64,000 nucleotides of DNA from an uncultured Mycoplasmatota bacterium (GCA_947652325.1 CANTCQ010000001.1:134725-198724), one strand, 5' to 3'; shown: positions 3,591 to 34,793, counted from the first letter of the stretch. Notes: a model not told the origin generated them from the sequence alone. Numbers and translations are program-made.

Positions 3591-3623
3591 TAAGAAGTCT
3601 TATGTAATTAAGACAAGTGCCAT

Positions 3624-11408: not shown

Positions 11409-11420
11409 TTTATTTTTTTT

Positions 11421-11496: not shown

Positions 11497-11504
11497 CTTA
11501 AATT

Positions 11505-11588: not shown

Positions 11589-11600
11589 TTTCTTAATTAT

Positions 11601-11676
11601 TGCCTCGTAGCCAAGTGGTAAGGCATCAGACTTTGACTCTGACATTCCGGTGGTTCGAACCCACCCGAGGCAGCCA
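11601..11676 (+). tRNA. tRNA-Gln (TTG)
   Basis: TGCCTCGTAGCCAAGTGGTAAGGC...CT-TTG-AC...GGTTCGAACCC...GGCAGCCA. Confidence 0.9.
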
Positions 11677-11687
11677 TTTTTAATTTT

Positions 11688-11763
11688 GATCCGCTAGCTC
11701 AGTTGGTAGAGCATTTGACTTTTAATCAAAGGGTCTTGGGTTCGAATCCCAAGCGGGTCACCA
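11688..11763 (+). tRNA. tRNA-Lys (TTT)
   Basis: GATCCGCTAGCTCAGTTGGTAGAGC...CT-TTT-AA...GGTTCGAATCC...GGTCACCA. Confidence 0.95.
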
Positions 11764-14709: not shown

Positions 14710-14786
14710 GCACCCATAGCTCAATTGGATAGAGCGCTAGACTACGGATCTAGAGGTTAGGGGTTCGACTCCCTTTGGGTGCACCA
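14710..14786 (+). tRNA. tRNA-Arg (ACG)
   Basis: GCACCCATAGCTCAATTGGATAGAGC...CT-ACG-GA...GGTTCGACTCC...GTGCACCA. Confidence 0.95.
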
Positions 14787-14799
14787 TTTAAATTTTTTG

Positions 14800-14827
14800 T
14801 AGCAATTTTAAAATTTGATGCTATAAT
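14800..14827 (+). promoter_or_regulatory. promoter of tRNA-Pro (extended -10)
   Basis: TAGCAA-N16-TGcTATAAT. It shares the block GCAATTTTAAAAT with the tRNA-Arg promoter. Confidence 0.5.
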
Positions 14828-14838
14828 ATAGTATGTAT

Positions 14839-14915
14839 CGGGAAGTGGCTCAACTTGGTAGAGCACTTGGTTTGGGACCAAGGGGTTGCAGGTTCAAATC
14901 CTGTCTTCCCGACCA
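14839..14915 (+). tRNA. tRNA-Pro (TGG)
   Basis: CGGGAAGTGGCTCAACTTGGTAGAGC...TT-TGG-GA...GGTTCAAATCC...CCCGACCA. Confidence 0.95.
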
Positions 14916-16079: not shown

Positions 16080-16880
16080 ATGGTAGAGGGAGGATTGATT
16101 TTTTTGAGTAGAGTGTTACATAATGCTAGAAATCAAATTATTCGTAGGTATAATTTTCTTACTCATCGTGGTGTGGATGTAGTAAAAGAGGAAAATAAAG
16201 TTTCGGAAATTCTTTCTCACAGTGATGGTGTTGTTTTTTTTGTTGGAAATGAAAAAAATTTTTCTAAAAAAAAAGAAAGTTATGGAAATTTTGTTATTTT
16301 AGAACATGAAAATGGTTATTTTACTTTGTATGCGCATTTGGAAAAAATTTTTGTTGTAGTAGGTGAATGTTTAAAACAAGGGGATATTATTGGTATTATG
16401 GGAGCAAGTGGAACAAAGCGTAGTCATTTGCATTTTGAAGTTCGGAATGCAAAAAATAAGCGTGTTAATCCAACGAAATATTTAGATGCTGAGTTACCTA
16501 AAGATAGGGAAAAAACAGCAATTCGTTATCAAATATATGATAATAAAGAAAAAAAATGGTTGCCTCTTGTAAGAGATAATGAAAGTTATGCTGGTATCTT
16601 TGGAAATCCTATTGGAGCTATTCTTATTCAGAGTTCTTTTCCTATAAAGTATAAAGTGTATCAACAAAAAAAGTGGCGTAGTTTTGATGCTAATAAAGAA
16701 CAAGATATGAATTATATTCCTATTTACGGATTTAAAATCATTTGTTTCAAAAATTTAGTATATCGTGTACATTTTGTGGGAACTCAGTGGTCAAATTGGA
16801 TATGTGCCGAAGAAGAAAATAAAATTTTAAATAAAAAAAGAGCAATTGATGCAATTCAAATACGATTAAAAGAGGATTAA
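16080..16880 (+). CDS. M23 (LytM-type) metallopeptidase with C-terminal ChW-like repeats
   Basis: 'HRGVD' and 'SHLHFEV' zinc motifs. Three ChW-like units ('IRYQIYDNKEKKWLPLV..AGIFGNPIGAILIQ', 'YRVHFVGTQWSNWI...AIDAIQIRL'). No signal peptide. GGGAGG inside the ORF suggests a TTG start at 16104. Confidence 0.8.
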   Translation: MVEGGLIFLSRVLHNARNQIIRRYNFLTHRGVDVVKEENKVSEILSHSDGVVFFVGNEKNFSKKKESYGNFVILEHENGYFTLYAHLEKIFVVVGECLKQGDIIGIMGASGTKRSHLHFEVRNAKNKRVNPTKYLDAELPKDREKTAIRYQIYDNKEKKWLPLVRDNESYAGIFGNPIGAILIQSSFPIKYKVYQQKKWRSFDANKEQDMNYIPIYGFKIICFKNLVYRVHFVGTQWSNWICAEEENKILNKKRAIDAIQIRLKED

Positions 16881-19704: not shown

Positions 19705-20976
19705 CTATTTGCATTTTTTTATTAAAATTTTTTGAACAAAAAAGTTATCAATAACACTCGTTTCTTTTGAAAATGTATCACTATATTTTATGATATTTTG
19801 GAATATATAAAGACCCATTCCTCTATTATCTCCTTTACTACTAAAGCCTTTTTCTTCCATTCTATCTAAAGCGATATGTTTAAAAGTGTTGGCAAGTAGA
19901 AACACAATTGTTTCTTTTTCTTTATAAAAATGCAAACTTATCATTTTTTCGTTACTTTCTAAACTCGCTTCAATTGCATTGTCTAAAATAATGCCTAAAA
20001 GGGTGTATAAATCGTTTTTTTCTTTGCTCGTTAGAAAATCATCTTTTATTTTGGCGATTTCTTCTGAGATATAAATCTCTACATCAATTTTTAATTCTTT
20101 CATTTGTAATAATTTAAAATTAATTAGTCCTTTTGCTCCAGCAATTGGAATATTTTTAAGTTCAGATAACCACCTGTAATGATTTACTACTTTTTCTTCT
20201 AAAAGAGTGTCGATATATTTTTGTAGTTCTTTATTTTTTTTATCTGTAAGACTTTTTATAATAAGTAATTTATTTTTATATTCATGAACAAAGCTTTTGT
20301 ATTCTGTTAAAAGACCTTCCGTGAATTCGGAATATTCTACCATTTTGTTATAATTTTTTTCTAAATCGTTATTTTTCTCTTTTTCATGAAACAAAATAAA
20401 AACTAAATTAATAATAATAATAAATAAAAATAAATTCATATATAAGTGTAAATTTGAATGAATTTGGTAATGTGTTAGTCGAATTGATGTCACTAAAAAA
20501 AGTCCTATGTTGTTTAAAATTATTTTTGAGAGTAAACTTTTATTTTTATAAATATAGTGGATATTGATAATTTCTTTAATATAATTTTGAAAGATAAGTA
20601 CTGCCAAAAAACTAAGAATGGTTGTACATTTATTTAAAAAAAATAAAGAAGGGATAGGGATATGTAAAATTGTTAGGGTGATGTAAAAAAGAAGTTCAAA
20701 AATAAAACGAATCAAATATATCGTAATGATAATGGGAAGAATGGGTTGATTGTTTTTTCTAAACTCAAAAAAAACAAAAAGAAAACTTAATAAAATATAA
20801 ATAGCAAAAGATGTGAGTGGCTCTGAGTAGGTAAAGTTTATCATATATAAAAAAGCAAAAATGAAGATTCTAATAAAGGATATTCCATATTTTTTCTTAT
20901 GTTTTATTAGTAGGTGTGTCGTTAGAAAAATATAGGAAAAAATCCATAATCCCATACTATAACTATTCCAGTTCAT
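19705..20976 (-). CDS. AgrC/ComD-type (HPK10) membrane sensor histidine kinase
   Basis: N-terminal ~200 aa holds six to seven hydrophobic helices. C-terminal GHKL ATPase has N-box 'LGIILDNAIEA' and G-box 'SSKGDNRGMGL'. It overlaps the LytTR regulator gene by 14 nt. Confidence 0.85.
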   Translation of the reverse strand: MNWNSYSMGLWIFSYIFLTTHLLIKHKKKYGISFIRIFIFAFLYMINFTYSEPLTSFAIYILLSFLFVFFEFRKNNQPILPIIITIYLIRFIFELLFYITLTILHIPIPSLFFLNKCTTILSFLAVLIFQNYIKEIINIHYIYKNKSLLSKIILNNIGLFLVTSIRLTHYQIHSNLHLYMNLFLFIIIINLVFILFHEKEKNNDLEKNYNKMVEYSEFTEGLLTEYKSFVHEYKNKLLIIKSLTDKKNKELQKYIDTLLEEKVVNHYRWLSELKNIPIAGAKGLINFKLLQMKELKIDVEIYISEEIAKIKDDFLTSKEKNDLYTLLGIILDNAIEASLESNEKMISLHFYKEKETIVFLLANTFKHIALDRMEEKGFSSKGDNRGMGLYIFQNIIKYSDTFSKETSVIDNFFVQKILIKKCK

Positions 20977-21706
20977 AATTATTTTCCTTTTTTAATTTTT
21001 CTTTTAAGTCTTTTTTCTTATTTCTGGAAAGTAAGTCAGTTTTATAATTTTGAAAATAAATGCAATTGTTTGTGAAGTCTACTTTTTCAATATTTTTAAG
21101 ATTTACAATACAACTTTGATGTGTTTTAAAAAAATCAGGATTTGATAATAGTTCTGTTTCAATTTTTGTAATACTTTGTTTGAGTTTATATGCTTTTTTA
21201 GGGGTGATAATCGAAGTATAATTATGATTTAGGTCTTTTTCAAAAAACAGAATATCATGATAGGGGATTTGATAAAGTTCATTATTATAAATAAATTTAA
21301 AGGATTTATGTCGCGAATGAATTCGTAAAGCAACTACAATAGCTTCTTCAATTTTATCTTCTACATAATCTTTTTTTGTAATAAAATCAAGCATTAAAAT
21401 TTTACTTGTAAATCCTTCTTCTTTAAAACATTCATGAGAAGTTATCATTATCATTTGACTTTCCCAGTCACCAGCATCTCTTATTTCTCTTGCTAAATCT
21501 AATCCAGATTTTCCCGGGACTTCCATATCCAAAAGAAATATATTTTTTCCTAGTAAATCATCTAATTTCTTTTTGGCTTCTTTGGTGTATTTGTCAATGA
21601 TTAGGATTTGGTATTTATCTTCTTTGTGGCCTATTATATTTAATATGGCGTGTTTATAGTGTTCTTGCCATTTTTTATCATCTTCATAAATTATAAAATT
21701 AATCAT
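20963..21706 (-). CDS. LytTR-family response regulator (AgrA-like)
   Basis: Receiver domain ('IFLLDMEVPGKSGLDLAREIR') plus a C-terminal LytTR DNA-binding domain ('ILFFEKD...HQSCIVNLKNIEKVD'). Confidence 0.9.
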   Translation of the reverse strand: MINFIIYEDDKKWQEHYKHAILNIIGHKEDKYQILIIDKYTKEAKKKLDDLLGKNIFLLDMEVPGKSGLDLAREIRDAGDWESQMIMITSHECFKEEGFTSKILMLDFITKKDYVEDKIEEAIVVALRIHSRHKSFKFIYNNELYQIPYHDILFFEKDLNHNYTSIITPKKAYKLKQSITKIETELLSNPDFFKTHQSCIVNLKNIEKVDFTNNCIYFQNYKTDLLSRNKKKDLKEKLKKENNYELE

Positions 21707-21876: not shown

Positions 21877-22182
21877 ATGATTTGCAAACGTTGTGGGGCT
21901 TCTCTTCCAAGTATAGGTTTTTTGTGTACAAATTGTGGATTTATGATGGATGCAGAGCAAATAAAAAAACAAAAAGAACTTATGAAATTGAATAAGCAAA
22001 GTAAAAATATAGAAATGCTTAGTACAAGATATGGGTATCGAGATAATTTATATGAAAATAGAGAAAAAGAAAAACGAAATTTTCCGAAGGTTTTATTGTT
22101 ATTATTTTTGTTCCTGTTCTTTCTTGTTTGTTTTGCATTGTTTATTTTTAACTTTTTGGGGAAGAATAGTGTTAGGTGGTAA
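21877..22182 (+). CDS. zinc-ribbon protein with C-terminal transmembrane anchor
   Basis: 'CKRCG...CTNCG' N-terminal zinc ribbon. Hydrophobic 'VLLLLFLFLFFLVCFALFIF' near the C-terminus. AGGTGA RBS. Confidence 0.65.
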   Translation: MICKRCGASLPSIGFLCTNCGFMMDAEQIKKQKELMKLNKQSKNIEMLSTRYGYRDNLYENREKEKRNFPKVLLLLFLFLFFLVCFALFIFNFLGKNSVRW

Positions 22183-22702: not shown

Positions 22703-22895
22703 TCAAATGTTTGTAAACTCTTCTAATTGAAGTGTTTTTTTGTTTCAAAAATATGTTATAATTTTTTTAGAAAAAATAGTTAAATATTTCTATATACTTT
22801 TTGGTAATTTTTAGTAGAAAAAAAATATTTGACTTTTTTTAATGACTATGATAACATAGGTGCCAATTTAAATGAATTTTATGTATTTTGGTATT

Positions 22896-22930
22896 TTGTA
22901 TAAAAATAAGATACTGATATTTTTATACAA
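22896..22930. promoter_or_regulatory. perfect 12-bp inverted repeat (candidate operator or 5'-UTR hairpin)
   Basis: TTGTATAAAAAT-N11-ATTTTTATACAA, directly upstream of the repeat-lipoprotein gene. Confidence 0.6.
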
Positions 22931-22959
22931 TGAAGGAAAAAGGAGATAGATTTTTAAAT

Positions 22960-25230
22960 ATGAAACAAGTAAAACATAAAAAAACTTTAAAGAATATATT
23001 GGGACAAGCTAAAGTGATGCTTGCTACAGTAGGACTTACTGGTTCTTTGGTAATGTCTGGTTGTGGATGTGGTGAAAAAAGAACTGAAGATATTTTTGCT
23101 CCAAGTTTAGAAGATTTAATTGATAAAGAAAATGCAAAACCTTTAGTAGAAAATGAAAAACTAATAGAAGAACAACAAACGAACAAAGAAAAAAAACAAC
23201 AAGATTTAAAAGAAGATATCAAAAGTAACAATACCATAGATTTATCAAATTATACGGGATATAGTTTAGATGAAGCTTTAGAGTCTATTGGATTAAAGCC
23301 TACACCAGAGCTTAAAGCAGAATTAGCAGCTTCTCTTGGAATTGATCCATACCTTAAAACAGCAGAACAAAATCTACTTATTTTACAAAGTTTAGGTGCT
23401 ACCATAAATGTTGGTGGTGTTGAACAACAAGTTATTATTAATGAAAATGGAGAGTTTATAGTTGTTCCAGTTGGGGAAGAAAAAAAGAAACAAGAAGAAA
23501 ATGAAATTGCTTCTAATAAAATCGAAACTCCAGAACGTCAAGACCCAGAAAAACTAGAAGATGACGTAAAACCTGTTATTGGTGGTAATGATAACAACGA
23601 TTCTGAAAATCAAAAACCAGGTAATAATGAAGATAAAGATAAAAATGATTCTGAAAATCAAAAACCAGGTAACAATGAAGATAAAGATAAAAATGATTCT
23701 GAAAATCAAAAACCAGGTAATGATGATACGAAACCGAACCCTGAAGACCATGAACATAAATATACCGAAGAAGTTCCAGGTACAAGAATAGCAAAGGCAA
23801 ATGGAGATGGAACACACAACGTATATGCTGATATGAAATGCCCAGAAGATGGAAGTATTCAAAAACAAGTATTAATAGAAAAAAATGTAGTGTGTAAACC
23901 TGGAACAGAAACGTTTACTGAAATAGTAAATGGAGTTGAATACGAATTTGAAATATGTGTAGATGGATGTGGAACAAAAGTTAATTATCGTGTAAAGAAA
24001 CCAGTTCATGACCATAAATATACTGAAGAAGTTCCAGGTACAAGAATAGTAAAGGCAAATGGAGATGGAACACACAACGTATATGCTGATATGAAATGCC
24101 CAGAAGATGGAAGTATTCAAAAACAAGTATTAATAGAAAAAAATGTAGTGTGTAAACCTGGAACAGAAACGTTTACTGAAATAGTAAATGGAGTTGAATA
24201 CGAATTTGAAATATGTGTAGATGGATGTGGAACAAAAGTTAATTATCGTGTAAAGAAACCAGACCATAACCATAAATATACTGAAGAAGTTCCAGGTACA
24301 AGAATAGCAAAGGCAAATGGAGATGGAACACACAACGTATATGCTGATATGAAATGCCCAGAAGATGGAAGTATTCAAAAACAAGTATTAATAGAAAAAA
24401 ATGTAGTGTGTAAACCTGGAACAGAAACGTTTACTGAAATAGTAAATGGAGTTGAATACGAATTTGAAATATGTGTAGATGGATGTGGAACAAAAGTTAA
24501 TTATCGTGTAAAGAAACCAGTTCATGACCATAAATATACTGAAGAAGTTCCAGGTACAAGAATAGTAAAGGCAAATGGAGATGGAACACACAACGTATAT
24601 GCTGATATGAAATGTCCAGAAGATGGAGATATTCAAAAACAAGTTGTTATTATTGAATCAGAACTTTGCGTATCTGATGGTAACATACATACAGTAACTA
24701 TAGGAGATGAAGTGTGGGAACAGGAGTTTTGTCCTCACTGTGGGTATTTAATTAGTTCTAAATTAGTACATAAACATGATTTTGTTTCTCAACCAATTGA
24801 AGGATGTATTGGTTCTTCCAAATTTTCATGCGGTTGTGGGGCAGAAAAAGATATAAATGTTGTTCCTCATGTTCCAGGTGCAGAAGAAATCACACAAATT
24901 GGAGATATGCTTGCTTATAGAATTGTTTGTATTAATTGTGGTTGGACGATTGAATCTGGTGTACGTCCAATTGATACAAATGATGAATTAGAAGCAAAAT
25001 GTGAGGCAATTATTCAACAATATAAAGATACTGAAGATAGCCAAACGAATACGATTGAGTCAAGTGATGGAAATGGGGACTCAATTCCAACAGGTGAAGT
25101 AATACAGATAGACGATGGTCAAGTGAATATGGAAGAAACAAGTAGTGGTAGTGAAGGTGGAGAGCCAGATGCTGAAGATTTAGAAGAAAGTGCTACTCTA
25201 TCTCGTATACTTTCTAGACCTAGGATTTAA
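22960..25230 (+). CDS. repeat-containing Cys/His-rich lipoprotein
   Basis: Signal peptide plus lipobox 'LTGSLVMSG-C'. Contains 3 x 16-aa 'NDSENQKPGNNEDKDK' and ~3.5 x 86-aa units with four Cys and an HxH motif each. The C-terminal part has 'CPHCG', 'SCGCG' and 'CINCG', then an acidic tail. GGAGA precedes ATG 22960; the ORF opens at 22930. Confidence 0.8.
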   Translation: MKQVKHKKTLKNILGQAKVMLATVGLTGSLVMSGCGCGEKRTEDIFAPSLEDLIDKENAKPLVENEKLIEEQQTNKEKKQQDLKEDIKSNNTIDLSNYTGYSLDEALESIGLKPTPELKAELAASLGIDPYLKTAEQNLLILQSLGATINVGGVEQQVIINENGEFIVVPVGEEKKKQEENEIASNKIETPERQDPEKLEDDVKPVIGGNDNNDSENQKPGNNEDKDKNDSENQKPGNNEDKDKNDSENQKPGNDDTKPNPEDHEHKYTEEVPGTRIAKANGDGTHNVYADMKCPEDGSIQKQVLIEKNVVCKPGTETFTEIVNGVEYEFEICVDGCGTKVNYRVKKPVHDHKYTEEVPGTRIVKANGDGTHNVYADMKCPEDGSIQKQVLIEKNVVCKPGTETFTEIVNGVEYEFEICVDGCGTKVNYRVKKPDHNHKYTEEVPGTRIAKANGDGTHNVYADMKCPEDGSIQKQVLIEKNVVCKPGTETFTEIVNGVEYEFEICVDGCGTKVNYRVKKPVHDHKYTEEVPGTRIVKANGDGTHNVYADMKCPEDGDIQKQVVIIESELCVSDGNIHTVTIGDEVWEQEFCPHCGYLISSKLVHKHDFVSQPIEGCIGSSKFSCGCGAEKDINVVPHVPGAEEITQIGDMLAYRIVCINCGWTIESGVRPIDTNDELEAKCEAIIQQYKDTEDSQTNTIESSDGNGDSIPTGEVIQIDDGQVNMEETSSGSEGGEPDAEDLEESATLSRILSRPRI
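23596..23727 (+). repeat. 48-bp in-frame tandem repeat (2.7 copies)
   Basis: Units start at 23596, 23644 and 23692 and differ by 1-2 nt. Confidence 0.9.
23749..24645 (+). repeat. 258-bp in-frame tandem repeat (~3.5 near-identical copies)
   Basis: The landmark CATAAATAT recurs at 23755, 24013, 24271 and 24529, an exact 258-bp period. Only a handful of substitutions separate the units. Confidence 0.95.
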
Positions 25231-25261
25231 TCGGGATTTATCGTGCTTAACCATATAATAA

Positions 25262-25900
25262 ATGAAAGTGGTGAAAGAAATGAAAAAGGGAAATAAATGG
25301 TATCATTCATTTAGTAATTGGCTTATCATTATTGCCTGTGTAATACTAGTTCCTATGTTGGTAATGAATTTAAGTATTATGTTTCAAGCTAAAACAAAAA
25401 AAGATGTTGTTCCAAGTATATTTGGAATAAAACCTTTCATCGTTTTATCTGGTTCAATGGAAACAGAAATACATAAAGGAGATATGATATTAACCAAAAT
25501 AGTTGACCCTGCATCGTTAGGAGTAGATGATGTTATTGCTTTTCGAGATGCAGAAGGAACTGTTACTACGCACCGGGTTATTGATGTTGTGGTAGAAAAT
25601 GGAGAAACATTTTTTATTACAAAAGGTGATAACAATAGTACCCAAGATAAAAATTTGGTAGAACTTAGTGACGTAGAAGGTTTATATATAGGTAGAATTC
25701 CAGGAATTGGTTCTATGATGGATAGCTTATCAGAACCAACAACAATTATTATTGTTGTTTTAGGAATTACCATGATATTTGTAATTGGTTTCTCTATTTC
25801 TAATAAGAAACAAAGAGAAATTGAAAGAAAAGAATTCTTAGAATACAAAAAAAGAAAAGAATTGGAAGAAAAGAATTCTGAAAATAAAAGTAAGTCTTAG
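25262..25900 (+). CDS. sipW: SipW-type (archaeal/ER-type, S26B) signal peptidase I, copy 1
   Basis: N-terminal TM, 'LSGSMETEIHKGD' (catalytic Ser), 'TTHRVID' (catalytic His), 'ITKGDNNSTQD', a second TM and a basic tail. Confidence 0.85.
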   Translation: MKVVKEMKKGNKWYHSFSNWLIIIACVILVPMLVMNLSIMFQAKTKKDVVPSIFGIKPFIVLSGSMETEIHKGDMILTKIVDPASLGVDDVIAFRDAEGTVTTHRVIDVVVENGETFFITKGDNNSTQDKNLVELSDVEGLYIGRIPGIGSMMDSLSEPTTIIIVVLGITMIFVIGFSISNKKQREIERKEFLEYKKRKELEEKNSENKSKS

Positions 25901-26030
25901 AAAGACTTAAATGAATATGCGTAAACTGCCCTTTGGGCGTTTACATAGATTTGGAAGTACATAACTTCCTGTCGCATAACAGAAAAGTTATGCATTATAA
26001 AGAAGAAATTTCGAGGGGAGGTGAAAAAGA

Positions 26031-26720
26031 ATGAAAAAGAAAATGATGGTACTAGGTGGTTTATTAATGGCTGTTGCAATTACAGGTTATTCAGTAAGTG
26101 GAACTTATGCTAAATATATCTCAGCTTTAGATACTATTACTGATAGTGCTAGAGTTGCTAAATTTAGTTTTAAGTTACAAGATAAAGACGGTGCTGATTG
26201 GACAGATACTACAACAGTTGATTTATTTAAAACTGCTTATAATAATAATGCAATTCAAAGTGCTGATACTGATAAAGTTATAGGTCCAGGAGCAACTGGT
26301 GAATATACTTTTACTATTAATGGTACAGCAGAAACTGCTTATACAGTAAAAATTGCAGCAGAAGCTACAGACAAAGATGGAAATGCTATTAATTCAGATT
26401 TAGCAGACCAAATTAAGTTTACTTTAACTAAAAATGGTACAGCTGTTAGCGGTGTAGAAAAAGTTTCTTTAGCTACTTTAGTTGCTGAATTAAATAAAAC
26501 TGATGGAAGTGCAATCGTTGCTGCCAATACAGCATTAAATGACACTTACAAAATTAATTGGGAGTGGGCATTTGATGATGCATCTGCTACAAAAGATGAA
26601 GTAACTAATGCTAATAACCAAAAAGATACAGGATTAGGTTCAAAAGAAACATTAGATACAATTAAATTAACTATCGATGTTACAGTTGCACAATCTGCAA
26701 CTGCTCCAACAATGCCTTAA
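26031..26720 (+). CDS. TasA/camelysin-like secreted protein, putative major fibre subunit
   Basis: Strong GGGGAGGTG RBS. Signal 'MKKKMMVLGGLLMAVAITGYSVSGTYAKYIS' resembles the SipW-cognate class. 'IGPGATGEYTFTI', 'WEWAFD', and a C-terminal 'LTIDVTVAQ'. Confidence 0.65.
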   Translation: MKKKMMVLGGLLMAVAITGYSVSGTYAKYISALDTITDSARVAKFSFKLQDKDGADWTDTTTVDLFKTAYNNNAIQSADTDKVIGPGATGEYTFTINGTAETAYTVKIAAEATDKDGNAINSDLADQIKFTLTKNGTAVSGVEKVSLATLVAELNKTDGSAIVAANTALNDTYKINWEWAFDDASATKDEVTNANNQKDTGLGSKETLDTIKLTIDVTVAQSATAPTMP

Positions 26721-26735
26721 TCAGTATTAAAAAGA

Positions 26736-26788
26736 GGAAGTTAATTTAACTTCCAAATAAGCCTATGAAAATAGTCGTAGGTTTATTT
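26736..26788 (+). terminator. two consecutive hairpins after the subunit gene (partial terminator or attenuator)
   Basis: GGAAGTT-AATTT-AACTTCC, then AAATAAGCCTA-N12-TAGGTTTATTT followed by T-rich sequence. Confidence 0.45.
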
Positions 26789-26846
26789 GAAAATTAAATT
26801 GATTTGTAAAAATAAATTATCCAATAGTAAAAGGAGGGGTACAGAG

Positions 26847-29800
26847 ATGAAGAATTTTTTGAATGAGTTTGCTAGTAAAAAAGATGTTACTTCTGATGAG
26901 AAAAGAAAAAGAAGAATTATTCTTTATATTATCATTATCATCATTATTCTTTTATTAATTACGAGTTGTAGCTGTACATCTAAGTTTTTTGGGAAAATTG
27001 GAGATTTATTTCGCGGAGAAAGCAATTATACAATTGACAATACACAAGATAATCAAGAAATAATAAAAAATAAAGAATTGCAATTTGATACAGATAATAC
27101 TGAGATGTCTCTTAGTGATTCAAGTACTAAAATTAGTTTTTCTTATAAAAATATTAATCCTGGAGGATTTACTTGTTCTACTAGTGATGCTGAAGTTGCT
27201 ACTTGTTATGTTGCCAATAATTATGTAGTGGTAATTCCCAAAAAAATTGGAGATATTACAGTTTATTTACAAACGACTACGAATGGTAAAACATATGAAG
27301 CAAGTACAAAAGTTAGTATTAAAGATATAAATAGAGCAATTGAGTTAGAAAGCAATAGTGGTACATTTAATTTAAAGAAAATGCAAGAATTAAACGTAGT
27401 TTATCGACTTGTTGGATTAGTAGGAAATGTTACTGTGTCTTCTAGTGATGAAAAAATAGCGATTGCTACTGCAAATGATGGTATTTTAAGTATAAAAGGA
27501 CTAAAAGTAGGAGAAGTAATTTTTACATTATCCCTTACTTATAATGACCGAGTTTATACTAATACATACACTGTAAAAGTAATAAACGGTATAAATACAG
27601 GAAATTCTACTAATACAAAACCAGGAGATAGTTCAAATAATATAGAAAAACCAAGTGAAATACCAAATCCAGGAGAAGATAAACCGCCAGTTGTTTTAGA
27701 TGGTGATAGTACTTTAAGAAGTTTAACAACTAATAAAGGAACACTTTTATTTGATAAAAATACTTATTCTTATTATATTGGACTTAGTGCTTGGAACTGG
27801 AAAATTTCTTTAAAAGCACAACCTACAAGTACAAAGGCAAAACTTTCTTATACTTATAATGGTGTAACCGTTTCTTCCTTAGAAAAACTAAAATTAAATA
27901 CGGGAGATAATAAAGTAGTAATTACAGTAACAGCTGAGAATGGTTCTACAAGTATATATGAAGTGGTTGTAAATAAGGCAAAGTCTAGTCAAAATTATTT
28001 GAAAAGTCTTACTACTTCTTTAGGAACTTTGGAACCAAAGTTTAATAAAAATATACTTAGTTATGATATTCGTGTAGGGTATGACAAAGAAAGTTTAGAT
28101 TTAATAGCTAAACCAAAAAGTAAAAAAGCTGCAATTACTTATATTTATAATGGAAAAATTGTAGCAGATTTAAATCATCTTTCTTTAAATACAGGTGATA
28201 ATTTTGTTCAAATTATTGTAACGGCTGAGAATGGAGTTTCTAGAACATATTCAGTTGTTATTAATCGTGAAGTAGCCCCTGGTGTCAAAGATAGTAATAG
28301 TTTATTAAAAAATTTAACAATTTCTAATGGAACTTTAGCATTTGATCCTTATGTGAATCGTTATATGATAGGTGTTTCTACTAATACTTCTGTTGTTTCT
28401 CTAAAAGCAATACCAAGTAGTAAAAAAGCAAGTGTAACTTATACTTTTAATAATATGCCAGTAGAGAATTTAGATAATTTAAATCTACGAATTGGAGATA
28501 ATACAGTTGTTGTTACAGTTATAGCAGAAGATGGAAGTAAAACCGATTATACAGTAGTTATTAATCGGGCAACACCAAGTAAAGAGAATTCCTTGAAAGA
28601 ATTAACAACAAATAAAGGAATACTTACTCCAATATTTGATGAAAATACGCTGGCTTATGAAATTTATGTTGATAGAAAAGAAGAAAACATTACTTTAACA
28701 GCAAGTCTGGCCAATCAAAATGCTTCTATGTTTTATACTTTAGATGGAACAAGTGTAAATAGTTTAACCAATCTTCCTTTAAAACCTGGTAAAAATGTGG
28801 TTAACATTCATGTTGTAAGCGAAGAGGGCATAACTAGAACATATGAAGTTGTAATTTATAGAGAAGTAGACACTTCAAAAAGTAAAGATAGTGCATTATC
28901 AAAAATAGAGGTTTTAAATAATGTAGGTTTACTATCTCCACAATTTAATAAAGATATAACAGAATATGTAGTTGATGTAAAAGCAGACATAGAAAAAATT
29001 TCTTTCGAAGCAGCGCTAAATGATGAAAAAGCAAGTGGAATGCAATTTATGTATAATGGAAAAAAAGTAACTTCTATTTTAGATTTGCCTCTTGTTACAG
29101 GAAATCAAAATGTACTTGTAATTACAGGTATAGCAGAAGATGGTGTTACACAAACTGATTATAAAATCATTATTAATAAAGCGTCTGATCCAGATAAGTC
29201 TAATAATAATCTTTTATCTAATTTAGAAATTAGCAATGTGAATAAGGGAATACTTACCCCAGCATTTTCTCCAAAAATAGATGAGTATAAAGTTTTAGTT
29301 TCAGCAAGTGATAATAAAATAGATCTAAAAGGAACACCTGCAAATAATAAAGCAGAGTTATCTTATACTTATACAAATAAAGATGGAGAAGAAGTAACAG
29401 TAGAAAATGGAACAAATATTTTCTTAAGGCCTGGTGACAATAAAATCGTAATTACGGTTGTAGCGGAAGATGGAACTCCAAAAAATTATACAGTGACAGT
29501 TTACAAACCTGTATACACTGTTGTTGTAAATGTTTTAGATACTTATTATGTAGAAGAAGCACCATTTCAAGTTTCTTATATAGTAAAAGATGAAATGGGT
29601 CAAGCGACAACAGATTATAAAATAGAAGATATTACAACAAATTTATCTTTATTTAATGACCTATTTAGTTTAGACACAACAGTTAAAGGAATTATTACTT
29701 TAACTCCAAAAACAGATAGATTACAAGAATTAGTGGATCAAAATGTTGATATAACGGTTACGTATAATCAAGACAGAAAAGATACCAAAACATTACATTT

Positions 29801-31037
29801 TGCTACACGTCCTGGCTATTATTTAAAAACACAAAATGAAATATATACAGTTACTTTGAATAAAGATAAACATTCTTTTTGGGATATTGTTTTAAATACC
29901 AACTTTTTTGTCAAAGATGTTAAATCAGTACCAGTTGCAAATGGAATACATTTATATACAGAAGGAAATGAAAATGTTTCCATTGATATCGTGGATATTA
30001 CGGAAGGTACTAAAATTATAGATTTAGTTTCAGGAGATTTATCATCTGTTAATTCTTTAACCATTCGTGCTAATTTAAAAAATGTAGGAACGGCTAAAGT
30101 ACATGTTAAAGGAATATATTATGGAAAAATAATTGAATTTGATATTTTAATTGCGATTACAGAAAAATATTCAGTTACGATTTCTGCAGGAGAAGGTTTC
30201 TTTGATGCGTTACTAACAGAATATAAATATGAATATGAACGTGGTACAAAAATAGATTTGGCAAATTATATTCCTTATAAAGTAGATGAAACAGAAAATT
30301 GTAAATACTTTACTCTAGATTATTATCAAGATAAAGAAGGAAACAAATACCAACAAACGGATGTTGTAGAAGTAACAAAAGAACTTGTTTTAACGGCTGT
30401 TTACAAACAAACTTCTGAAATTGTAGATATAAAAGATAAAGGAAAATATTATTTAGAAAATTTAGATATATTTAATAATGAAAGATTTTTAAATAATGAA
30501 AAAGTTATTCATCCTGGAGTAAGTGGAGAACATAGAATAACACTTACAAATAATTTGGCAAGTAAAATCATAATTACTGGAATGACGTTAGAAGAGGATA
30601 CTATTTGTATTCAAGAAGGAAATATTAAGGGTTGTATTAATATGGAATATGCTCTTAAAAGAACGGATTTAAGTACTACTGATATTTATTATTATCCAGG
30701 AAGTGATAAAAGTGGATATACTATTTTAAATCGAGATGCCAATCGAAATGAAGTGAACAATTATCGTGATTTAGATAAACAATATACCCTTCGAACTTTA
30801 AAATTTAAAGATGAAGGTAAAGAAAATATTGAGTTATCTAAAGGAGAAACAGTTGAATTATTTCTACTATGGAGATGGTCTTTTGAAGGTGTCGATGATC
30901 AGTTAGATACAAAGATTGGTGAATATGTTGAAAAACAATTTGCAGAAAAAAAGATTAATGAAATGTATCATTTGTTGATTGGTTTTGATTATGAAATAGA
31001 AAATACATATTGTAAAAAACAAGTAGATACGAATTAA
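26847..31037 (+). CDS. giant surface protein: N-terminal TM/signal, 2 Big_2-like domains, 6 cadherin-like beta-sandwich repeats, C-terminal TasA-like domain
   Basis: AGGAGGGG RBS before ATG 26847. 'ILYIIIIIIILLLITSCSCTSKFF' anchor. Six ~100-aa repeats of the type 'L+sLttn.GtL.P.F..n...Y.i.V......i.l.a.p....a......g.......l.l..G.N.v.I.V.AEdG....Y.v.I'. The C-terminal ~200 aa has 'IHPGVSGEHRITL' and 'WRWSFEG'. Confidence 0.85.
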   Translation: MKNFLNEFASKKDVTSDEKRKRRIILYIIIIIIILLLITSCSCTSKFFGKIGDLFRGESNYTIDNTQDNQEIIKNKELQFDTDNTEMSLSDSSTKISFSYKNINPGGFTCSTSDAEVATCYVANNYVVVIPKKIGDITVYLQTTTNGKTYEASTKVSIKDINRAIELESNSGTFNLKKMQELNVVYRLVGLVGNVTVSSSDEKIAIATANDGILSIKGLKVGEVIFTLSLTYNDRVYTNTYTVKVINGINTGNSTNTKPGDSSNNIEKPSEIPNPGEDKPPVVLDGDSTLRSLTTNKGTLLFDKNTYSYYIGLSAWNWKISLKAQPTSTKAKLSYTYNGVTVSSLEKLKLNTGDNKVVITVTAENGSTSIYEVVVNKAKSSQNYLKSLTTSLGTLEPKFNKNILSYDIRVGYDKESLDLIAKPKSKKAAITYIYNGKIVADLNHLSLNTGDNFVQIIVTAENGVSRTYSVVINREVAPGVKDSNSLLKNLTISNGTLAFDPYVNRYMIGVSTNTSVVSLKAIPSSKKASVTYTFNNMPVENLDNLNLRIGDNTVVVTVIAEDGSKTDYTVVINRATPSKENSLKELTTNKGILTPIFDENTLAYEIYVDRKEENITLTASLANQNASMFYTLDGTSVNSLTNLPLKPGKNVVNIHVVSEEGITRTYEVVIYREVDTSKSKDSALSKIEVLNNVGLLSPQFNKDITEYVVDVKADIEKISFEAALNDEKASGMQFMYNGKKVTSILDLPLVTGNQNVLVITGIAEDGVTQTDYKIIINKASDPDKSNNNLLSNLEISNVNKGILTPAFSPKIDEYKVLVSASDNKIDLKGTPANNKAELSYTYTNKDGEEVTVENGTNIFLRPGDNKIVITVVAEDGTPKNYTVTVYKPVYTVVVNVLDTYYVEEAPFQVSYIVKDEMGQATTDYKIEDITTNLSLFNDLFSLDTTVKGIITLTPKTDRLQELVDQNVDITVTYNQDRKDTKTLHFATRPGYYLKTQNEIYTVTLNKDKHSFWDIVLNTNFFVKDVKSVPVANGIHLYTEGNENVSIDIVDITEGTKIIDLVSGDLSSVNSLTIRANLKNVGTAKVHVKGIYYGKIIEFDILIAITEKYSVTISAGEGFFDALLTEYKYEYERGTKIDLANYIPYKVDETENCKYFTLDYYQDKEGNKYQQTDVVEVTKELVLTAVYKQTSEIVDIKDKGKYYLENLDIFNNERFLNNEKVIHPGVSGEHRITLTNNLASKIIITGMTLEEDTICIQEGNIKGCINMEYALKRTDLSTTDIYYYPGSDKSGYTILNRDANRNEVNNYRDLDKQYTLRTLKFKDEGKENIELSKGETVELFLLWRWSFEGVDDQLDTKIGEYVEKQFAEKKINEMYHLLIGFDYEIENTYCKKQVDTN

Positions 31038-31049
31038 AGGGGTTAAAAA

Positions 31050-31793
31050 ATGAAGGTTATAAAAAGGATATTTTTTATCATTGCAACAGTAGTATTGTTC
31101 TTTCTTTTCTTATTTAACTTTTATACATTTTTTTGTATAAAAATAGCAAAACAAGACTTAGCTACCATTAATGGATATGCTTTATTAGAAGTTGTATCGG
31201 GGTCAATGGAACCTATTATTCATATCGGAGATATGATTGTAATTGATACAAAAACTACTCATTATCAAGAAAACGATATTGTTACATTTTATGATGTGAA
31301 TGGCTCTTTTGTAACTCACAGAATTCTTTCTATAAAAGGGGAAGACATGATTACAAAAGGAGATAATAACAATAGTGAAGATGAATCCATTCCACTAAAA
31401 AATATAGTTGGAAAATATGTTTTTAAAGTAAATGGCCTTGGAAAAATACTTGCTTCTTTTAAAAGTCCCTTCGTGATGATTATGATTTTAATAATTGGTT
31501 TTATGGTTTGTTTCTTAATTAGCACAGATAAAGAGGGAAAACCCATTTTAACACAAGAAGAAAAAGAGTTTCAAGAATTTATAAAAAATAAAGAAAAGAA
31601 ATTAAACGAAAGTAAAAATGATGTAAAAATAAAACAGACTAATGTGAAAAATGTAGATGAAGAAGATAAAAGAGTTGCGAAAAAAGTACAAGAATCAAAA
31701 ACAAGTCTTAAGACAAAAAGTTTTGTACCAAAAAAGAAACTAAATAAAATGTCTACTAAAAAAAGAAAAAATAATAAAAAGAAAAGTAGGTGA
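31050..31793 (+). CDS. sipW: SipW-type signal peptidase I, copy 2, with long Lys-rich tail
   Basis: 'VVSGSMEPIIHIGD', 'VTHRILS', 'ITKGDNNNSED', a second TM, and a ~90-aa highly basic C-terminal extension. Confidence 0.85.
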   Translation: MKVIKRIFFIIATVVLFFLFLFNFYTFFCIKIAKQDLATINGYALLEVVSGSMEPIIHIGDMIVIDTKTTHYQENDIVTFYDVNGSFVTHRILSIKGEDMITKGDNNNSEDESIPLKNIVGKYVFKVNGLGKILASFKSPFVMIMILIIGFMVCFLISTDKEGKPILTQEEKEFQEFIKNKEKKLNESKNDVKIKQTNVKNVDEEDKRVAKKVQESKTSLKTKSFVPKKKLNKMSTKKRKNNKKKSR

Positions 31794-32428
31794 ATATCGT
31801 GAATGAATTATTACATAGTAAAAGATTTAGGGCAAATTTATATAAATGGCTGTGTATGTATGTAGGGGTTATGTTATTACTTACTACTGTAATAACTTAT
31901 TCAAGATATATGACCAAATTGCAAATTTCTGATGATGTAAGAACTGCTAAATTTGATGTAAAAGTAAAAGGAATAGAACAAATGTGTCCAGGGACTTCTT
32001 CTACTTGTAATAGTGGTGCGTATTTGGTAGGTAATCAAATGAATTATTATTTTACAGTTGACCCTAAAGAATTGGAAGTACGTGCAGAAGTTTCTAGATT
32101 GATTATTCAAATAAAAAATAATTTTCGAATTCAAAAAATTGAAAATGTAAAAATAAGTACCAATGTGGATGGTGTTCCAATTGAAGAAATAACAAAAACA
32201 ATTTGTGATTCTACTACATCTAATACTTGTTTAGGTACAGAAAGTAAAGCTACGGGAACCTATACTTATTCATTAAAAGAACCAGTTTTATTAGACCTTT
32301 CGAATAAAGAGGCCATAAATTATAAAATAACCCTCTTATATGTTGGAGATGCAATAACAAATCCCGAAGGAATCTATATTGATAAAATGATAACCGTTGA
32401 TTATACAGTACAACAAAAAACAAAATAA
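31790..32428 (+). CDS. TasA-like minor secreted protein (212 aa)
   Basis: GTG start overlapping the sipW-2 stop (GTGA). N-terminus 'VGVMLLLTTVITYSRYMTKLQISDDVRTAKFDVKV' aligns with the 26031 protein ('GTYAKYISALDTITDSARVAKFSFKL'). Ends 'ITVDYTVQQ'. Confidence 0.65.
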   Translation: MNIVNELLHSKRFRANLYKWLCMYVGVMLLLTTVITYSRYMTKLQISDDVRTAKFDVKVKGIEQMCPGTSSTCNSGAYLVGNQMNYYFTVDPKELEVRAEVSRLIIQIKNNFRIQKIENVKISTNVDGVPIEEITKTICDSTTSNTCLGTESKATGTYTYSLKEPVLLDLSNKEAINYKITLLYVGDAITNPEGIYIDKMITVDYTVQQKTK

Positions 32429-32443
32429 GAAAGGAGGAGTTCC

Positions 32444-34594
32444 ATGAAAAAAGAAAAAAAATTCTACAAAAAAGTAGAATATCATCGAAAAATTGGTCAA
32501 GCTATTGCAAGCACATTATTCGTACTCGGAATAGCAGCGATGTCGGTTTTTCCAGAGTCTCACTCTAAATATATTACGAGTGGTCAGGTGGAGTTGGGAA
32601 GTGCTACTTTGTATCCAAAAGAACAAGGTACATTGACAAAAGATAATTTTAAATTATTAGGTTCCAAAGATACCGCACCGCCACCGGGTACGAATTATAA
32701 TTCAGATGAAACATATGCATTTATAAAAGTTTCTTTTACTAAAAATTCTGTAGATGAAATTATTGGAGATAGTCATGATTATGTGGTAAAAACTCCAACT
32801 TGTAATATAGTATATGTGAATGGTACAAAGATAAGTGGAAGTGTTAAAGAATATACAATTCCTTCTATAGGAAAAGAAAATCAAGTAATAATGAAGTGTA
32901 GTGTTAAAAACAATACACAAGGAAATAATTTAAAAGCTTCCATTCAAATTGAGGAAACTATTAAGGATACTACTTTTACTTATAAGACGGGTGAATTTAT
33001 AGAATCAATTGATTCCTATAAAGATAAATATTCATCGGATATTCCAGTACCAGAGCCCGAAATAGTAAAAACTAAAGAATATATTAGTATTCCAACTGTT
33101 TTTATAAATGAAGATTCTACATATAGTACAGAATTTGTTAGTTGGTTGGATATGATAGTAGATGATGCGAGTTATGATGAAACCGTAAAACAAAATATTA
33201 AAAGTTATATTCGAAATTCTTATAGTAATTTGGCTTCTCTTAAGAGTGACCAAAGTTTACCAAGTATCAAGTTTTATCATCCAAATACAGAAGGAAATAA
33301 AGAAGATGTATATAAACTAGAAATTATTAGAGAAAATTTAGTAGGATATGCTAAAACATATCAAAATCATATGGCAAATCCAAATCTCATGTATTTTTCG
33401 AGTATGGATTCAAAAATCGTTCAAGATGCTTTTATTTATTATTTAACACATTATAAATATCCAATAAAAGATGATGCTCAATTAGTTTTAGATTATGTAG
33501 ATTTAATGAGCGAACATAAAGGGCTATCTTATTTAATGGAAACGGATGAGCTTGGAAATTTAAAATATGAAATTCCAGGAATAAAATATGAGCCTGAGGG
33601 ACAGAAAGTTACATTAGAAGATACTTTATTGATTTTTGCTTATACTAAAATTAATTCAATTATAAAGTTATCTTATGATAATCCTTATGTAGCACTTACA
33701 GGATATGATGAAATGTTGAGAAAAATTTTCAAATTTGAAAAGTATGAAATTGATATTCTTGAAGGTAATGATATCTTAAATCTTATTCTTATGAAACCTA
33801 CAGAAAAATTTAATAAATTCTTTGTTTATAATGCTGTTGATACAGAAAATTCAAATAGTAGTTATTTGCTTGTTCATATGTATTCTGATGATTTGTCTTC
33901 CTTATTTATTGAAGTTACTAAGGTACCATTTGAGAAGACAACGAATACCTTAACTCTTACAGTAGATATTACAAATTACAAAACAACAGAGATTACAGAT
34001 TTAACTTCTGCTGTAGAAAGTTTATTTAATGATAAAAAAGTTGAATTTACAATACAAGATGAAAGTGATAAAAAGACCATTGTTTATACAGTTACAGATA
34101 AGGTAACTGGTGATGAGATAGTTGATAATACAGATTCTATTTTAGATTTGAATGAAAATGTTTTATCTAACACAAATGTTCAACCACCAAAGGTTTTGGA
34201 TGGAGCTAATACAAATAAAAATGATAGCAATGGTACAAATACTACTAAAAAAGTGGATAAGAGTGAAGAAAATTTCCAAACTGTAAATTCTGATAATAAA
34301 ACAGAACAAGAAGATAAAAAAGTAAAAGAAGAAAATTCTGTTAAAATTTCAAATAGTGAAACAGATAATGTAGTTAATGCGAATGTTTCTAATAAAATGA
34401 ATGTATCTAATGATAATCAAGAAGAAACTTTAGATTTAGATACCAAAGTAGAAAATGTAAATACTGTTAATACAACTTCTCAAATAAATATTGGAGCTCC
34501 TCCAGTGATAGGGGATAATGTAACTCCTGATATAGGAATAGAAGAGGTTGCTAGCGGATTTATAAATTTCATTGAACCTGTAGCAACAGGATAA
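32444..34594 (+). CDS. large secreted protein (716 aa) with the same signal motif and an N/T-rich low-complexity tail
   Basis: AGGAGG RBS. 'LFVLGIAAMSVFPESHSKYITSG' signal-like N-terminus. No LPXTG sorting signal. Confidence 0.7.
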   Translation: MKKEKKFYKKVEYHRKIGQAIASTLFVLGIAAMSVFPESHSKYITSGQVELGSATLYPKEQGTLTKDNFKLLGSKDTAPPPGTNYNSDETYAFIKVSFTKNSVDEIIGDSHDYVVKTPTCNIVYVNGTKISGSVKEYTIPSIGKENQVIMKCSVKNNTQGNNLKASIQIEETIKDTTFTYKTGEFIESIDSYKDKYSSDIPVPEPEIVKTKEYISIPTVFINEDSTYSTEFVSWLDMIVDDASYDETVKQNIKSYIRNSYSNLASLKSDQSLPSIKFYHPNTEGNKEDVYKLEIIRENLVGYAKTYQNHMANPNLMYFSSMDSKIVQDAFIYYLTHYKYPIKDDAQLVLDYVDLMSEHKGLSYLMETDELGNLKYEIPGIKYEPEGQKVTLEDTLLIFAYTKINSIIKLSYDNPYVALTGYDEMLRKIFKFEKYEIDILEGNDILNLILMKPTEKFNKFFVYNAVDTENSNSSYLLVHMYSDDLSSLFIEVTKVPFEKTTNTLTLTVDITNYKTTEITDLTSAVESLFNDKKVEFTIQDESDKKTIVYTVTDKVTGDEIVDNTDSILDLNENVLSNTNVQPPKVLDGANTNKNDSNGTNTTKKVDKSEENFQTVNSDNKTEQEDKKVKEENSVKISNSETDNVVNANVSNKMNVSNDNQEETLDLDTKVENVNTVNTTSQINIGAPPVIGDNVTPDIGIEEVASGFINFIEPVATG

Positions 34595-34793
34595 AATTTA
34601 TTTTGAGTTTCAGTATTTTTAAAAATTTATTTTAGTACCGGTTAAAATAAATAGTTATGAGCTCGGTTTGAAAGATATAAGAAACTTAGAATTTTTAAAT
34701 ATAATTGTTATGATGCATTTAACAAAAATAAGAGTAGGTAGGAACAACCTACTTTTATTTTTGTTTAAATACAAAAAAATACTTGTTTTTTAT

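Follow-up and report, generated by a model that had tools for sequence, protein, structure and literature searches.

Among the major scaffolds of Gram-positive biofilms are SipW-dependent fibers, built from TasA and its relatives, whose attachment to the cell is understood only for Bacillus TapA. In the B. subtilis tapA-sipW-tasA operon, a terminal peptide of TapA complements TasA and triggers the formation of filaments by donor-strand exchange (PMC10151520, PMC9674648); this short peptide carries the essential activity of TapA (PMC10151520). Here, we describe a gene in a comparable position within a 64,000-nucleotide stretch of DNA from an uncultured Mycoplasmatota bacterium (GCA_947652325.1 CANTCQ010000001.1:134725-198724; hereafter the window, with positions counted from its first nucleotide). 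The gene, at 22960-25230 on the + strand, encodes a putative surface lipoprotein of 756 residues that contains tandem, nearly identical His/Cys-rich modules and stands immediately upstream of a gene for a SipW-type signal peptidase. We give about an even chance to the reading that this protein is a cell-surface stalk or adaptor, encoded by the conserved first gene of a SipW-dependent secreted-fiber or matrix operon in low-GC gut Bacilli related to Erysipelotrichaceae. Surface proteins rich in repeats have been described before, as have accessory genes that precede sipW. New here are the family, which is uncurated and lacks a solved structure, its predicted fold, which carries eight conserved ligand positions on a protein outside the cytoplasm, and the regular occurrence of such a gene as the first of SipW operons from uncultured gut Bacilli.

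The likeness to TapA (YqxM) is one of gene position and layout. Like tapA, the gene lies directly upstream of genes for a SipW-type peptidase and for secreted matrix or fiber subunits, an arrangement that we met in six loci; TapA, a minor accessory component, is believed to anchor the fiber or to nucleate it, and the window protein ends in a short conserved motif that follows a flexible tail. The two proteins differ, however, in sequence and build: phmmer searches with the full protein and with a profile of its modules gave no similarity to TapA in sequence or, at the level of the PDB, to its Ig-like V-set core (6HQC/6QAY). TapA consists of a SipW-type signal peptide and one Ig-like domain, whereas in the window protein a lipobox and a DUF3597-like domain precede His/Cys arrays; the candidate docking peptide is C-terminal in the window protein but N-terminal in TapA. 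The neighboring subunits, moreover, are not detectably homologues of TasA. A role like that of TapA would thus be analogous, not homologous.

Other described systems share single traits with this protein. SasG and Aap need Zn2+ and at least five repeats (PMC4261907). The G5-E arrays of Aap and SasG resemble the window array in their near-identical tandem repeats, in an elongated β-sheet rod that would rise from the wall, and in the importance of zinc and repeat number; there is no homology, however, and Aap/SasG are held by a C-terminal LPXTG anchor and use zinc to bridge two molecules via His, Asp, and Glu, whereas the window protein has an N-terminal lipid anchor and putative intramodular, Cys-containing sites. 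The streptococcal Pht proteins are likewise surface lipoproteins with repeated His-containing motifs, which bind metal in Pht, and their genomic partners are zinc-uptake genes. A regular-expression search found no HxxHxH motif in the window protein, which has five HxH motifs instead (one at each module start), and it has no match to the Pht family and sipW as its genomic partner; we rejected a Pht-like zinc scavenger on motif and gene context. Zinc ribbons of the TFIIB/TFIIS type and the Zn_ribbon families share β-hairpins with C-x2-4-C(G) turns and give many subthreshold matches, but a ribbon has three strands and four Cys, whereas the window module is predicted to have six strands and eight ligand-type positions and to lie outside the cytoplasm.

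Conserved Placement Upstream of sipW

The genes that follow the lipoprotein gene in the window are as follows.

25262-25900, + strand: SipW-type (archaeal/ER-type) signal peptidase I, copy 1 (NCBIfam TIGR02228, 91.4 bits against a cut-off of 51.85)
26031-26720, + strand: 229-residue secreted protein with signal peptide ...YSVSGTYA/KY (slash, cleavage site), candidate SipW substrate and fiber subunit
26787-31037, + strand: giant protein of 1416 residues with six cadherin-like β-sandwich domains (Pfam Cadherin-like, E 1.6e-58)
31050-31793, + strand: second SipW-type peptidase (Pfam Peptidase_S24, E 2e-7)
31790-34594, + strand: two further secreted proteins (31790-32428, 212 residues; 32444-34594, 716 residues), assigned as ORFs with N-termini like that of the 229-residue protein

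The window and five other loci share one gene order, in which the module protein is followed by sipW, a small secreted protein, the giant protein, and a second sipW. The other five are L001/L006 (encoding the orthologue P0002), L008, L009 (from an Erysipelotrichaceae metagenome-assembled genome, or MAG), L010 (P0041), and L011 (P0046), and the six loci come from different lineages. The adjoining peptidase scores 88-95 bits on TIGR02228 in all six, and a second sipW is present in each; the second copies in L010 and L011 match TIGR02228. The giant protein also occurs in all six, with a Cadherin-like match in five and an assignment by position and size in L011 (1065 residues), for which no match is on record. 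L001, L008, and L009 each have a counterpart of the 229-residue protein, conserved in its sequence and its place in the gene order. The first-pass annotation of the window had proposed that the gene might form one unit with sipW. The shared gene order supports the linkage to sipW, and we regard it as quite probable that the module protein belongs to the sipW operon system. That annotation put the gap between the genes at 31 nt, which is correct from the lipoprotein stop at 25230 to the first sipW ATG at 25262; the real sipW start is, however, likely to be 25280, because orthologues begin MKKG.KWY and a GGTGA precedes 25280, and the gap then becomes 49 nt. No terminator-like site was found on the + strand from 22960 to 34594, and the first + strand terminator-like hairpin past the operon lies at 34736-34754.

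The three secreted proteins (26031-26720, 31790-32428, and 32444-34594) share an N-terminal pattern, ..Y[AS][KR]Y[IM][ST]..; ..D.[AV]R.AKF.., and are candidates for SipW substrates of an undescribed subunit family; none of the three resembles a known family or a solved structure. The giant protein likely starts at 26847, where a strong AAAGGAGGGG site precedes the ATG. It contains a lipobox-like LLLITSC, after which comes a TS.FFGKIGDLF segment that is conserved in L008 and L009 as well; judged by these residues, the giant protein may be the operon's second lipoprotein.

Layout of the Lipoprotein and Its Family

The features of the lipoprotein gene are as follows.

22829-22857, + strand: promoter-like site, TTGACT-17-TAACAT with a TG extension, ~100 nt upstream of the start codon (consensus scan)
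22960-25230, + strand: coding sequence of the modular surface lipoprotein, 756 residues plus stop (ORF list, GGAG, orthologue alignment)
22960-23064, + strand: lipoprotein signal peptide with lipobox V-M-S-G-C, Cys35 (read from sequence)
23230-23427, + strand: conserved N-domain, IDLSNYTGYSLDEALESIGL...YLKTAEQNLLILQSLG, DUF3597-like, putative cell-wall-binding
23586-23726, + strand: 48-bp repeat x2.9, encoding NDSENQKPGNNEDKDK (16 residues x3), part of the low-complexity linker 23500-23748
23749-24522, + strand: three 258-bp units (23749-24006, 24007-24264, 24265-24522), each one 86-residue His/Cys module
24523-24768, + strand: module 4, a hybrid that keeps the ligand pattern (C..D, C, CPHC)
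24769-24999, + strand: module 5, a degenerate His/Cys module (HKH..C..CGC..H..CINCG; tentative)
25000-25191, + strand: acidic tail (by composition; 25% Asp plus Glu over residues 681-756)
25192-25227, + strand: C-terminal basic/hydrophobic motif ATLSRILSRPRI (C-termini of 19 family members compared)

The longest frame (22930-25230, + strand, 766 residues) is the sole long open reading frame (ORF) of the region, and its upstream ATG at 22930 is an alternative start for the lipoprotein gene. We prefer the start at 22960, in agreement with the first-pass annotation, because a GGAG lies at 22942-22945 and the close orthologue P0002 aligns from the 22960 Met. All of the sequence features reported in that annotation (the ORF, the repeats, CPHCG, SCGCG, CINCG, and the acidic tail) are present where it had placed them; it had overlooked the DUF3597-like domain, the conserved C-terminal motif, and the tapA-like position in the operon. 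Three nearly identical minus-strand ORFs of 84 residues each, within 23872-24642, were set aside as mechanical echoes of the 258-bp repeat, not genes.

The protein carries a lipoprotein signal peptide (MKQVKHKKTLKNILGQAKVMLATVGLTGSLVMSGC, residues 1-35), judged from its basic start MKQVKHKK...VMLATVGLTGSLVMSGC and the lipobox at its end, with Cys35 counted from the 22960 start. The lipobox Cys is nearly invariant (~90%) in a 12-member family alignment, and a lipobox (LTGC, LSGC, MTGC, etc.) is present in most family members. The signal is followed by a charged spacer (residues 36-90), the conserved N-domain (91-156, with a conserved extension to 180), an Asn/Asp/Lys-rich linker (181-263), the His/Cys modules (264-680), the acidic tail (681-744), and the terminal peptide (745-756). 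The whole protein has 18 His and 24 Cys, concentrated in the repeated modules; apart from those of the signal peptide and one Cys in the tail, they are confined to the module region. Module 5 aligns poorly with the others, and its assignment as a module is tentative.

An exhaustive HMMER search of 1.84 billion cluster representatives with a two-protein profile (threshold E<1e-3) found only 38 proteins, which fall into two groups; the family itself is small, with about 15 representatives in this set. The orthologue P0002 (726 residues, same plan), which came from mouse-gut MAGs labeled "uncultured Bacilli", was the one orthologue among the matches listed in a word-indexed search with the whole protein. 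About a dozen proteins (P0007, P0011-P0014, P0016, P0020, P0025, P0028, P0033, and, found later, P0046) have the same layout of lipobox, N-domain, low-complexity linker, His/Cys arrays of several subtypes, acidic tail, and terminal [KR]-[VKI]-L-x-L(D). P0005, P0041, and P0042 share the module subtype of the window protein, its tail, and its motif, with an N-terminal transmembrane anchor and no N-domain. The second group, exemplified by P0006, has only the N-domain in common. Pfam and NCBIfam gave no significant family for the window protein; one scan of genome contigs with the single protein and two scans of metagenome contigs found no relatives, and the patterns of one of the metagenome scans (EEKKKQE) were uninformative.

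Two further members show how the plan varies. A second member of 731 residues (L007, 9689-11884) comes from the same MAG as L008 and has no sipW beside it. Its upstream neighbor encodes a 1079-residue Big_2-like surface protein, and ileS follows downstream, so that members of the family occur outside the operon too. The Erysipelotrichaceae member (L009, 9551-12478, 975 residues) has four tandem N-domain copies, an ordinary-looking signal peptide without a lipobox, a Gly-rich linker, long Asn/Gln/Glu and KEAQE repeats, and a C-terminal ...GSARKLTV. Judged from this member, the plan varies and the two ends are conserved.

The N-domain of the window protein is ~84% identical to that of P0002, and the family profile retrieves many proteins through this domain alone. 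P0006, an M23 peptidase with five copies of the domain (family profile E 3.3e-19), links it to a curated family, in that its copies match the C-terminal half of Pfam DUF3597 (PF12200) at 68.8 bits against a cut-off of 29.8; three of the six family N-domains match DUF3597 as well (best E 5.9e-5). The DUF3597-like assignment of the window N-domain is thus putative, through a transitive link to the C-terminal half of the model only. DUF3597 is listed as an uncharacterized, putative cell-wall-binding domain of Bacillus phage endolysins (PMC11674121). At the other end, the acidic tail, common to all family members, is probably disordered, and the C-termini follow the pattern [KR]-[VKI]-L-x-L, often with D next.

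Putative Ligand Positions and Predicted Fold of the His/Cys Module

To describe the module, we aligned 19 examples of one subtype from the window protein, P0002, P0005, and P0041 (numbered by the 100-residue query of the structural model). Five columns are invariant (C36, C75, C79, G80, and H92), and six more are at least 90% conserved (H6, H8, T27, H28, D39, and H94); in the 12-protein family alignment, all invariant array columns are Cys or His. The window protein has Cys at position 54, where nearly all relatives have His, and position 39 is Asp except where the motif reads C-T-S-C, so that the Asp aligns with a Cys of C-x2-C. Three Cys are present in 10 of the 19 modules, and Cys plus His is constant at seven; the window modules have four Cys each. 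The first-pass description of 4-Cys/His-x-His modules was incomplete, since eight positions are involved (H6, H8, H28, C36, D39, C/H54, C75, and C79). Of the two knuckles of a zinc ribbon, with which it had compared them, the module has the second, C-V-D-G-C-G; the first reads C-P-E-D-G rather than CxxC, with Asp in place of a Cys of the relatives, and the curated models stay below their cut-offs.

The composition of the conserved columns (His, Cys, and Asp), the His/Cys and Asp/Cys replacements, and the odd Cys counts favor metal sites over disulfides, the two options that the first-pass annotation had named. From these patterns, we consider it fairly probable that the modules hold structural metal sites, most likely two Zn2+ per module through the eight ligand positions, a number that is enough for two tetrahedral sites. 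As a guess from the alternation of hairpin turns in the model, H28/C54/C75/C79 would form a site at one end of the module and H6/H8/C36/D39 a site at the other. The alternative pairing H8/H28/C36/D39, suggested by shorter relatives, is disfavored on one ground only: in the model, a nine-residue strand has H28 at one end and C36 at the other. If it binds metal, the module would count among the rare examples of structural metal sites with Cys on the outside of a bacterial cell.

The structural model was made with AlphaFold2 (AF2) for one unit, using the 19-row alignment, and reached a predicted local distance difference test (pLDDT) of 87.1 and a predicted template modeling (TM) score of 0.65, with 58 residues at a pLDDT of 90 or above; a first run on two tandem units with a 5-row alignment (pLDDT 52) was discarded. 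The 86-residue module is thereby predicted, with high confidence, to be an elongated all-β meander of six strands in hairpins (19-22, 27-35, 42-53, 56-65, 68-75, and 82-87) joined by the turns NGDG, CPEDGS, CK, NG, and VDGCGT; the first-pass annotation had called for a structure prediction of the unit, and this confident model argues for a defined fold. Foldseek searches with the model found nothing significant in the PDB (best E 0.24, TM 0.34, fibronectin type I pairs) or among viral structures (best E 0.1), and phmmer searches with the full protein and the module profile found nothing at E<0.2 among all PDB sequences. The Foldseek neighbors fibronectin type I, midkine, and EF-P were rejected as homologues (TM at or below 0.36). 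Two Pfam candidates were also rejected. STEEP1 (PF25809) reaches 27.0 bits, equal to its cut-off of 27, as a sum over the repeats with no stretch significant in itself; the match is flagged "faint" in the precomputed data and has no equivalent in the orthologue P0002, and we read it as a chance Cys-pattern match. CFSR (PF19079) spans only the NGDGTH hairpin and is subthreshold for the window protein, although P0041 passes (38 bits); we found no literature on this family.

The modules do have wider kin. A search with P0005 also retrieves the dockerin-bearing protein P0044 (E 5.6e-6) and the surface protein P0045 (E 1.5e-4), both built from repeats of the form GH.YGDW..H....C..CG....AHAW.......YTC..CG, a type common in gut Clostridia. 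By hhalign, an alignment of window-type modules (A6) matches one of the P0044/P0045 repeats (A8) with a probability of 95.9% and E 5.1e-9 over 40 columns, pairing the window C-P-E-D with C-x2-C, and the AHAW His with the window C54. Alignment extends to the knuckle, the central His, and the C-x2-C-G, and both kinds form tandem arrays on secreted proteins; the window module differs in its length (86 against about 68 residues, with an extended first hairpin), in having HxH for the single junction His, Asp for the second knuckle Cys, and Cys for the central His. By this match, which comes from two proteins, the module is remotely homologous to them and forms a divergent, elongated branch of extracellular His/Cys repeats that have no Pfam or NCBIfam model. 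The first-pass annotation had called such modules unusual; with related repeats in P0044 and P0045, they are not unique to the window protein. The window protein and its relatives match zinc-ribbon models and transposase zinc-binding models only below threshold or in summed scores. One solved structure and a metal analysis would characterize the repeat and allow a family model, which Pfam and NCBIfam lack.

Repeat Expansion and Copy Number

Tandem Repeats Finder reports the 258-bp unit in 3.5 copies at 23749-24644 (97% matches, 0% indels, score 1722) and the 48-bp unit in 2.9 copies at 23586-23726 (93% matches). Units 1-3 differ pairwise at 3-5 of 258 nt, and unit 4 equals unit 2 over its first 92 nt, diverging thereafter. 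Units 1+2 and units 3+4 differ at three nucleotides in the first 350, which indicates that the last event duplicated a two-unit, 516-bp block. Within the gene, the units are 98-99% identical in DNA, against ~37% protein identity to the modules of the orthologue, so the recent expansion or homogenization proposed in the first-pass annotation is supported. The orthologue P0002 has its own 270-bp x2.4 repeat (96%), and the near-identity within the gene compared with ~37% between orthologous modules indicates that the arrays expanded or were homogenized independently in each lineage.

Array length also differs between assemblies of related strains, all made from short reads. P0047 equals P0002 minus exactly one 90-residue module and is otherwise identical, and P0041 and P0042 share 671 identical N-terminal and 159 identical C-terminal residues and have five and three 65-residue units, respectively. 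The predicted variation in copy number is thus seen between assemblies, but collapse of the assembly is possible for both pairs; the data fit real copy-number variation and are not separable from such collapse. Near-identical repeats make the gene a likely site both of strain-level length variation and of short-read assembly errors.

Proposed Role and Alternative Readings

In the stalk or adaptor reading, the lipid anchor would hold the N-terminus at the membrane, with the DUF3597-like domain probably at the wall. The metal-stapled modules would form a stiff, disulfide-independent rod, suited to the surface of an anaerobe, that spans the wall and projects beyond it; its length would be set by the repeat number, which could shift readily through unequal recombination between near-identical units. 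The acidic tail would then act as a flexible tether presenting the terminal [KR]-x-L-x-L strand, which may dock on an operon partner, for example the secreted subunits or the cadherin-like protein, and so anchor or nucleate a SipW-processed fiber or matrix. By analogy with TapA, this anchoring or nucleating role of the C-terminus is possible, but we hold it to be doubtful. More speculative still is the proposal of a new class of fiber-anchoring adaptor, a lipid-anchored and wall-bound rod of zinc-stapled modules with two metal sites per 86 residues, a length adjusted through fast gain and loss of repeats, and a C-terminal strand that would insert into or cap the first fiber subunit, which would make it a TapA analogue of opposite polarity. 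The family provides a second, unrelated candidate for a fiber anchor, in uncultured gut Bacilli, and its C-terminal motif is a clear testable element.

Several observations weigh against this picture. The pairing of ligands is a topological guess from strand order in the model, and all zinc-ribbon family models score below their cut-offs when run on the window protein (Pfam Zn_ribbon_3, 17.0 bits against 27; Zn_ribbon_Nudix, 16.8 against 25.6; no NCBIfam match). The window N-domain itself does not match the DUF3597 model at E<10. The C-terminal motif is short (5-6 residues), its function is deduced, and it only weakly resembles the N-terminal "ARVAKF/W" segment of the subunits. The 229-residue protein has no Pfam, NCBIfam, or PDB match, profile search included, and no similarity to TasA, camelysin, or solved structures, so that its fiber or "TasA-like" reading comes only from the presence of SipW and the resemblance of its signal peptide (...SGTYA/KY...). 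In addition, the paralogue in L007 is not adjacent to sipW, and the lipoprotein gene may have its own promoter.

Alternative explanations concern both the array itself and its use. That the array is partly an artifact of assembly, with real repeats but a wrong unit number of 3.5 in the contig, is a possibility to which we assign a minor but appreciable weight. The contig (NODE_18, 279 kb) was assembled by SPAdes from short metagenome reads at 19x coverage, the interior 212 bp are identical across units 1-3, and two of the three junctions are identical; two fragments in the database, P0003 and P0004, have their starts within an array or right behind one, as expected of short-read contigs, which break at repeats, and P0047 differs from P0002 by exactly one unit. 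Against this stand the record of the window protein sequence from two contigs, the consistent two-unit pattern of the substitutions that distinguish the units, the intact reading frame, and the presence of similar arrays in every relative, which makes the array itself no artifact. The exact unit count is thus insecure, because of the short-read assembly and the shared 212 bp, and the array is real. For the modules, there is a slight chance that they are stabilized by disulfides and free of metal, with the His conserved for other reasons. The window modules do have an even number of Cys (four), and the weak, nonsignificant Foldseek neighbors (fibronectin type I and midkine) are disulfide-rich extracellular modules; but 10 of the 19 homologous modules have three Cys, the second window Cys (C54) is His in relatives, the conserved Asp aligns with Cys, and three to four His per module are as strongly conserved as the Cys. 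The hosts, moreover, are gut anaerobes, in which extracytoplasmic disulfide formation is uncommon.

If the modules do bind metal, the protein might instead scavenge or buffer it, with His/Cys sites capturing surface Zn2+ for uptake or detoxification, as has been proposed for Pht. A surface lipoprotein with most of its 18 His and 24 Cys in repeats would gain capacity with each copy, and its ligand-type positions are the most conserved. We consider this role quite improbable, however, since the HxxHxH triad and a Pht family match are lacking, zinc-uptake genes of the adcA/znuA type were not found among the neighbors examined, and the conserved partners at six loci are sipW and secreted structural proteins; Cys-rich tetrahedral sites in a confidently predicted β-meander look structural (high affinity, slow exchange) rather than shuttle-like, and a scavenger would leave the wall-binding domain, the acidic tail, and the C-terminal motif unexplained. 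It is unlikely, but less so, that the array itself mediates homophilic or heterophilic adhesion between cells or to the host, possibly in a metal-dependent way, as with the Zn2+-dependent G5-E repeats of Aap/SasG, and independently of SipW products. Gram-positive adhesins typically have near-identical tandem repeats that form elongated β-sheet rods, His/Cys repeats of a related kind are found in two other surface proteins, one of them with a dockerin, and the neighbor of the L007 paralogue is a large Big_2 surface protein rather than sipW. On the other side, the tight, conserved placement directly upstream of sipW at six loci and the absence of a known ligand-binding head domain argue against an adhesin, and the ligand positions, intramodular and nearly complete (7-8 per module), suit structural sites better than intermolecular bridging.

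Regulatory Elements and Gene Surroundings

The promoter-like site at 22829-22857 is a pattern match only, in a region with fewer such matches than shuffled sequence. Between it and the ribosome-binding site of the lipoprotein gene lies a perfect 13-nt inverted repeat at 22896-22930 (TTGTATAAAAATA N9 TATTTTTATACAA), which could be an operator or a 5'-UTR (untranslated region) hairpin; the DNA is AT-rich, and a chance occurrence is possible. Directly after the gene for the 229-residue protein, a perfect hairpin at 26736-26754 (GGAAGTTAA-T-TTAACTTCC) lacks a + strand T-run and was scored only as a minus-strand terminator, at a site with no minus-strand gene; it may be an attenuator or an mRNA-stabilizing element following the major subunit gene.

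The gene context is chromosomal, with no obvious mobile element. The surroundings include a large serine recombinase, three tRNA clusters (12 tRNAs in all), and an M23 peptidase (positions listed: 700-2550; 3134-3709; 11332-11760; 14710-14912; 16080-16880) among housekeeping genes, which comprise those for pyruvate kinase, alanine racemase, asparagine synthase, and phosphoketolase and, downstream, nusA-infB-rbfA-truB-pnp. Just upstream of the lipoprotein gene and divergent from it, an agr-like pair (19705-21706, - strand) encodes a GHKL histidine kinase (HATPase_c_5) and a LytTR response regulator, and is conserved at the matching place in L001-L004. The sipW operon may be under the control of this pair; a search for LytTR-type direct repeats in the intergenic DNA upstream of the lipoprotein gene gave none. 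Between the LytTR regulator and a DUF5698/DUF2179 gene lies a gene for a 101-residue protein (21877-22182, + strand) that combines a double CxxC zinc ribbon at its N-terminus (MICKRCG...CTNCG) with a transmembrane segment at its C-terminus and has a 93-residue counterpart at the matching site in L001 (8902-9183).

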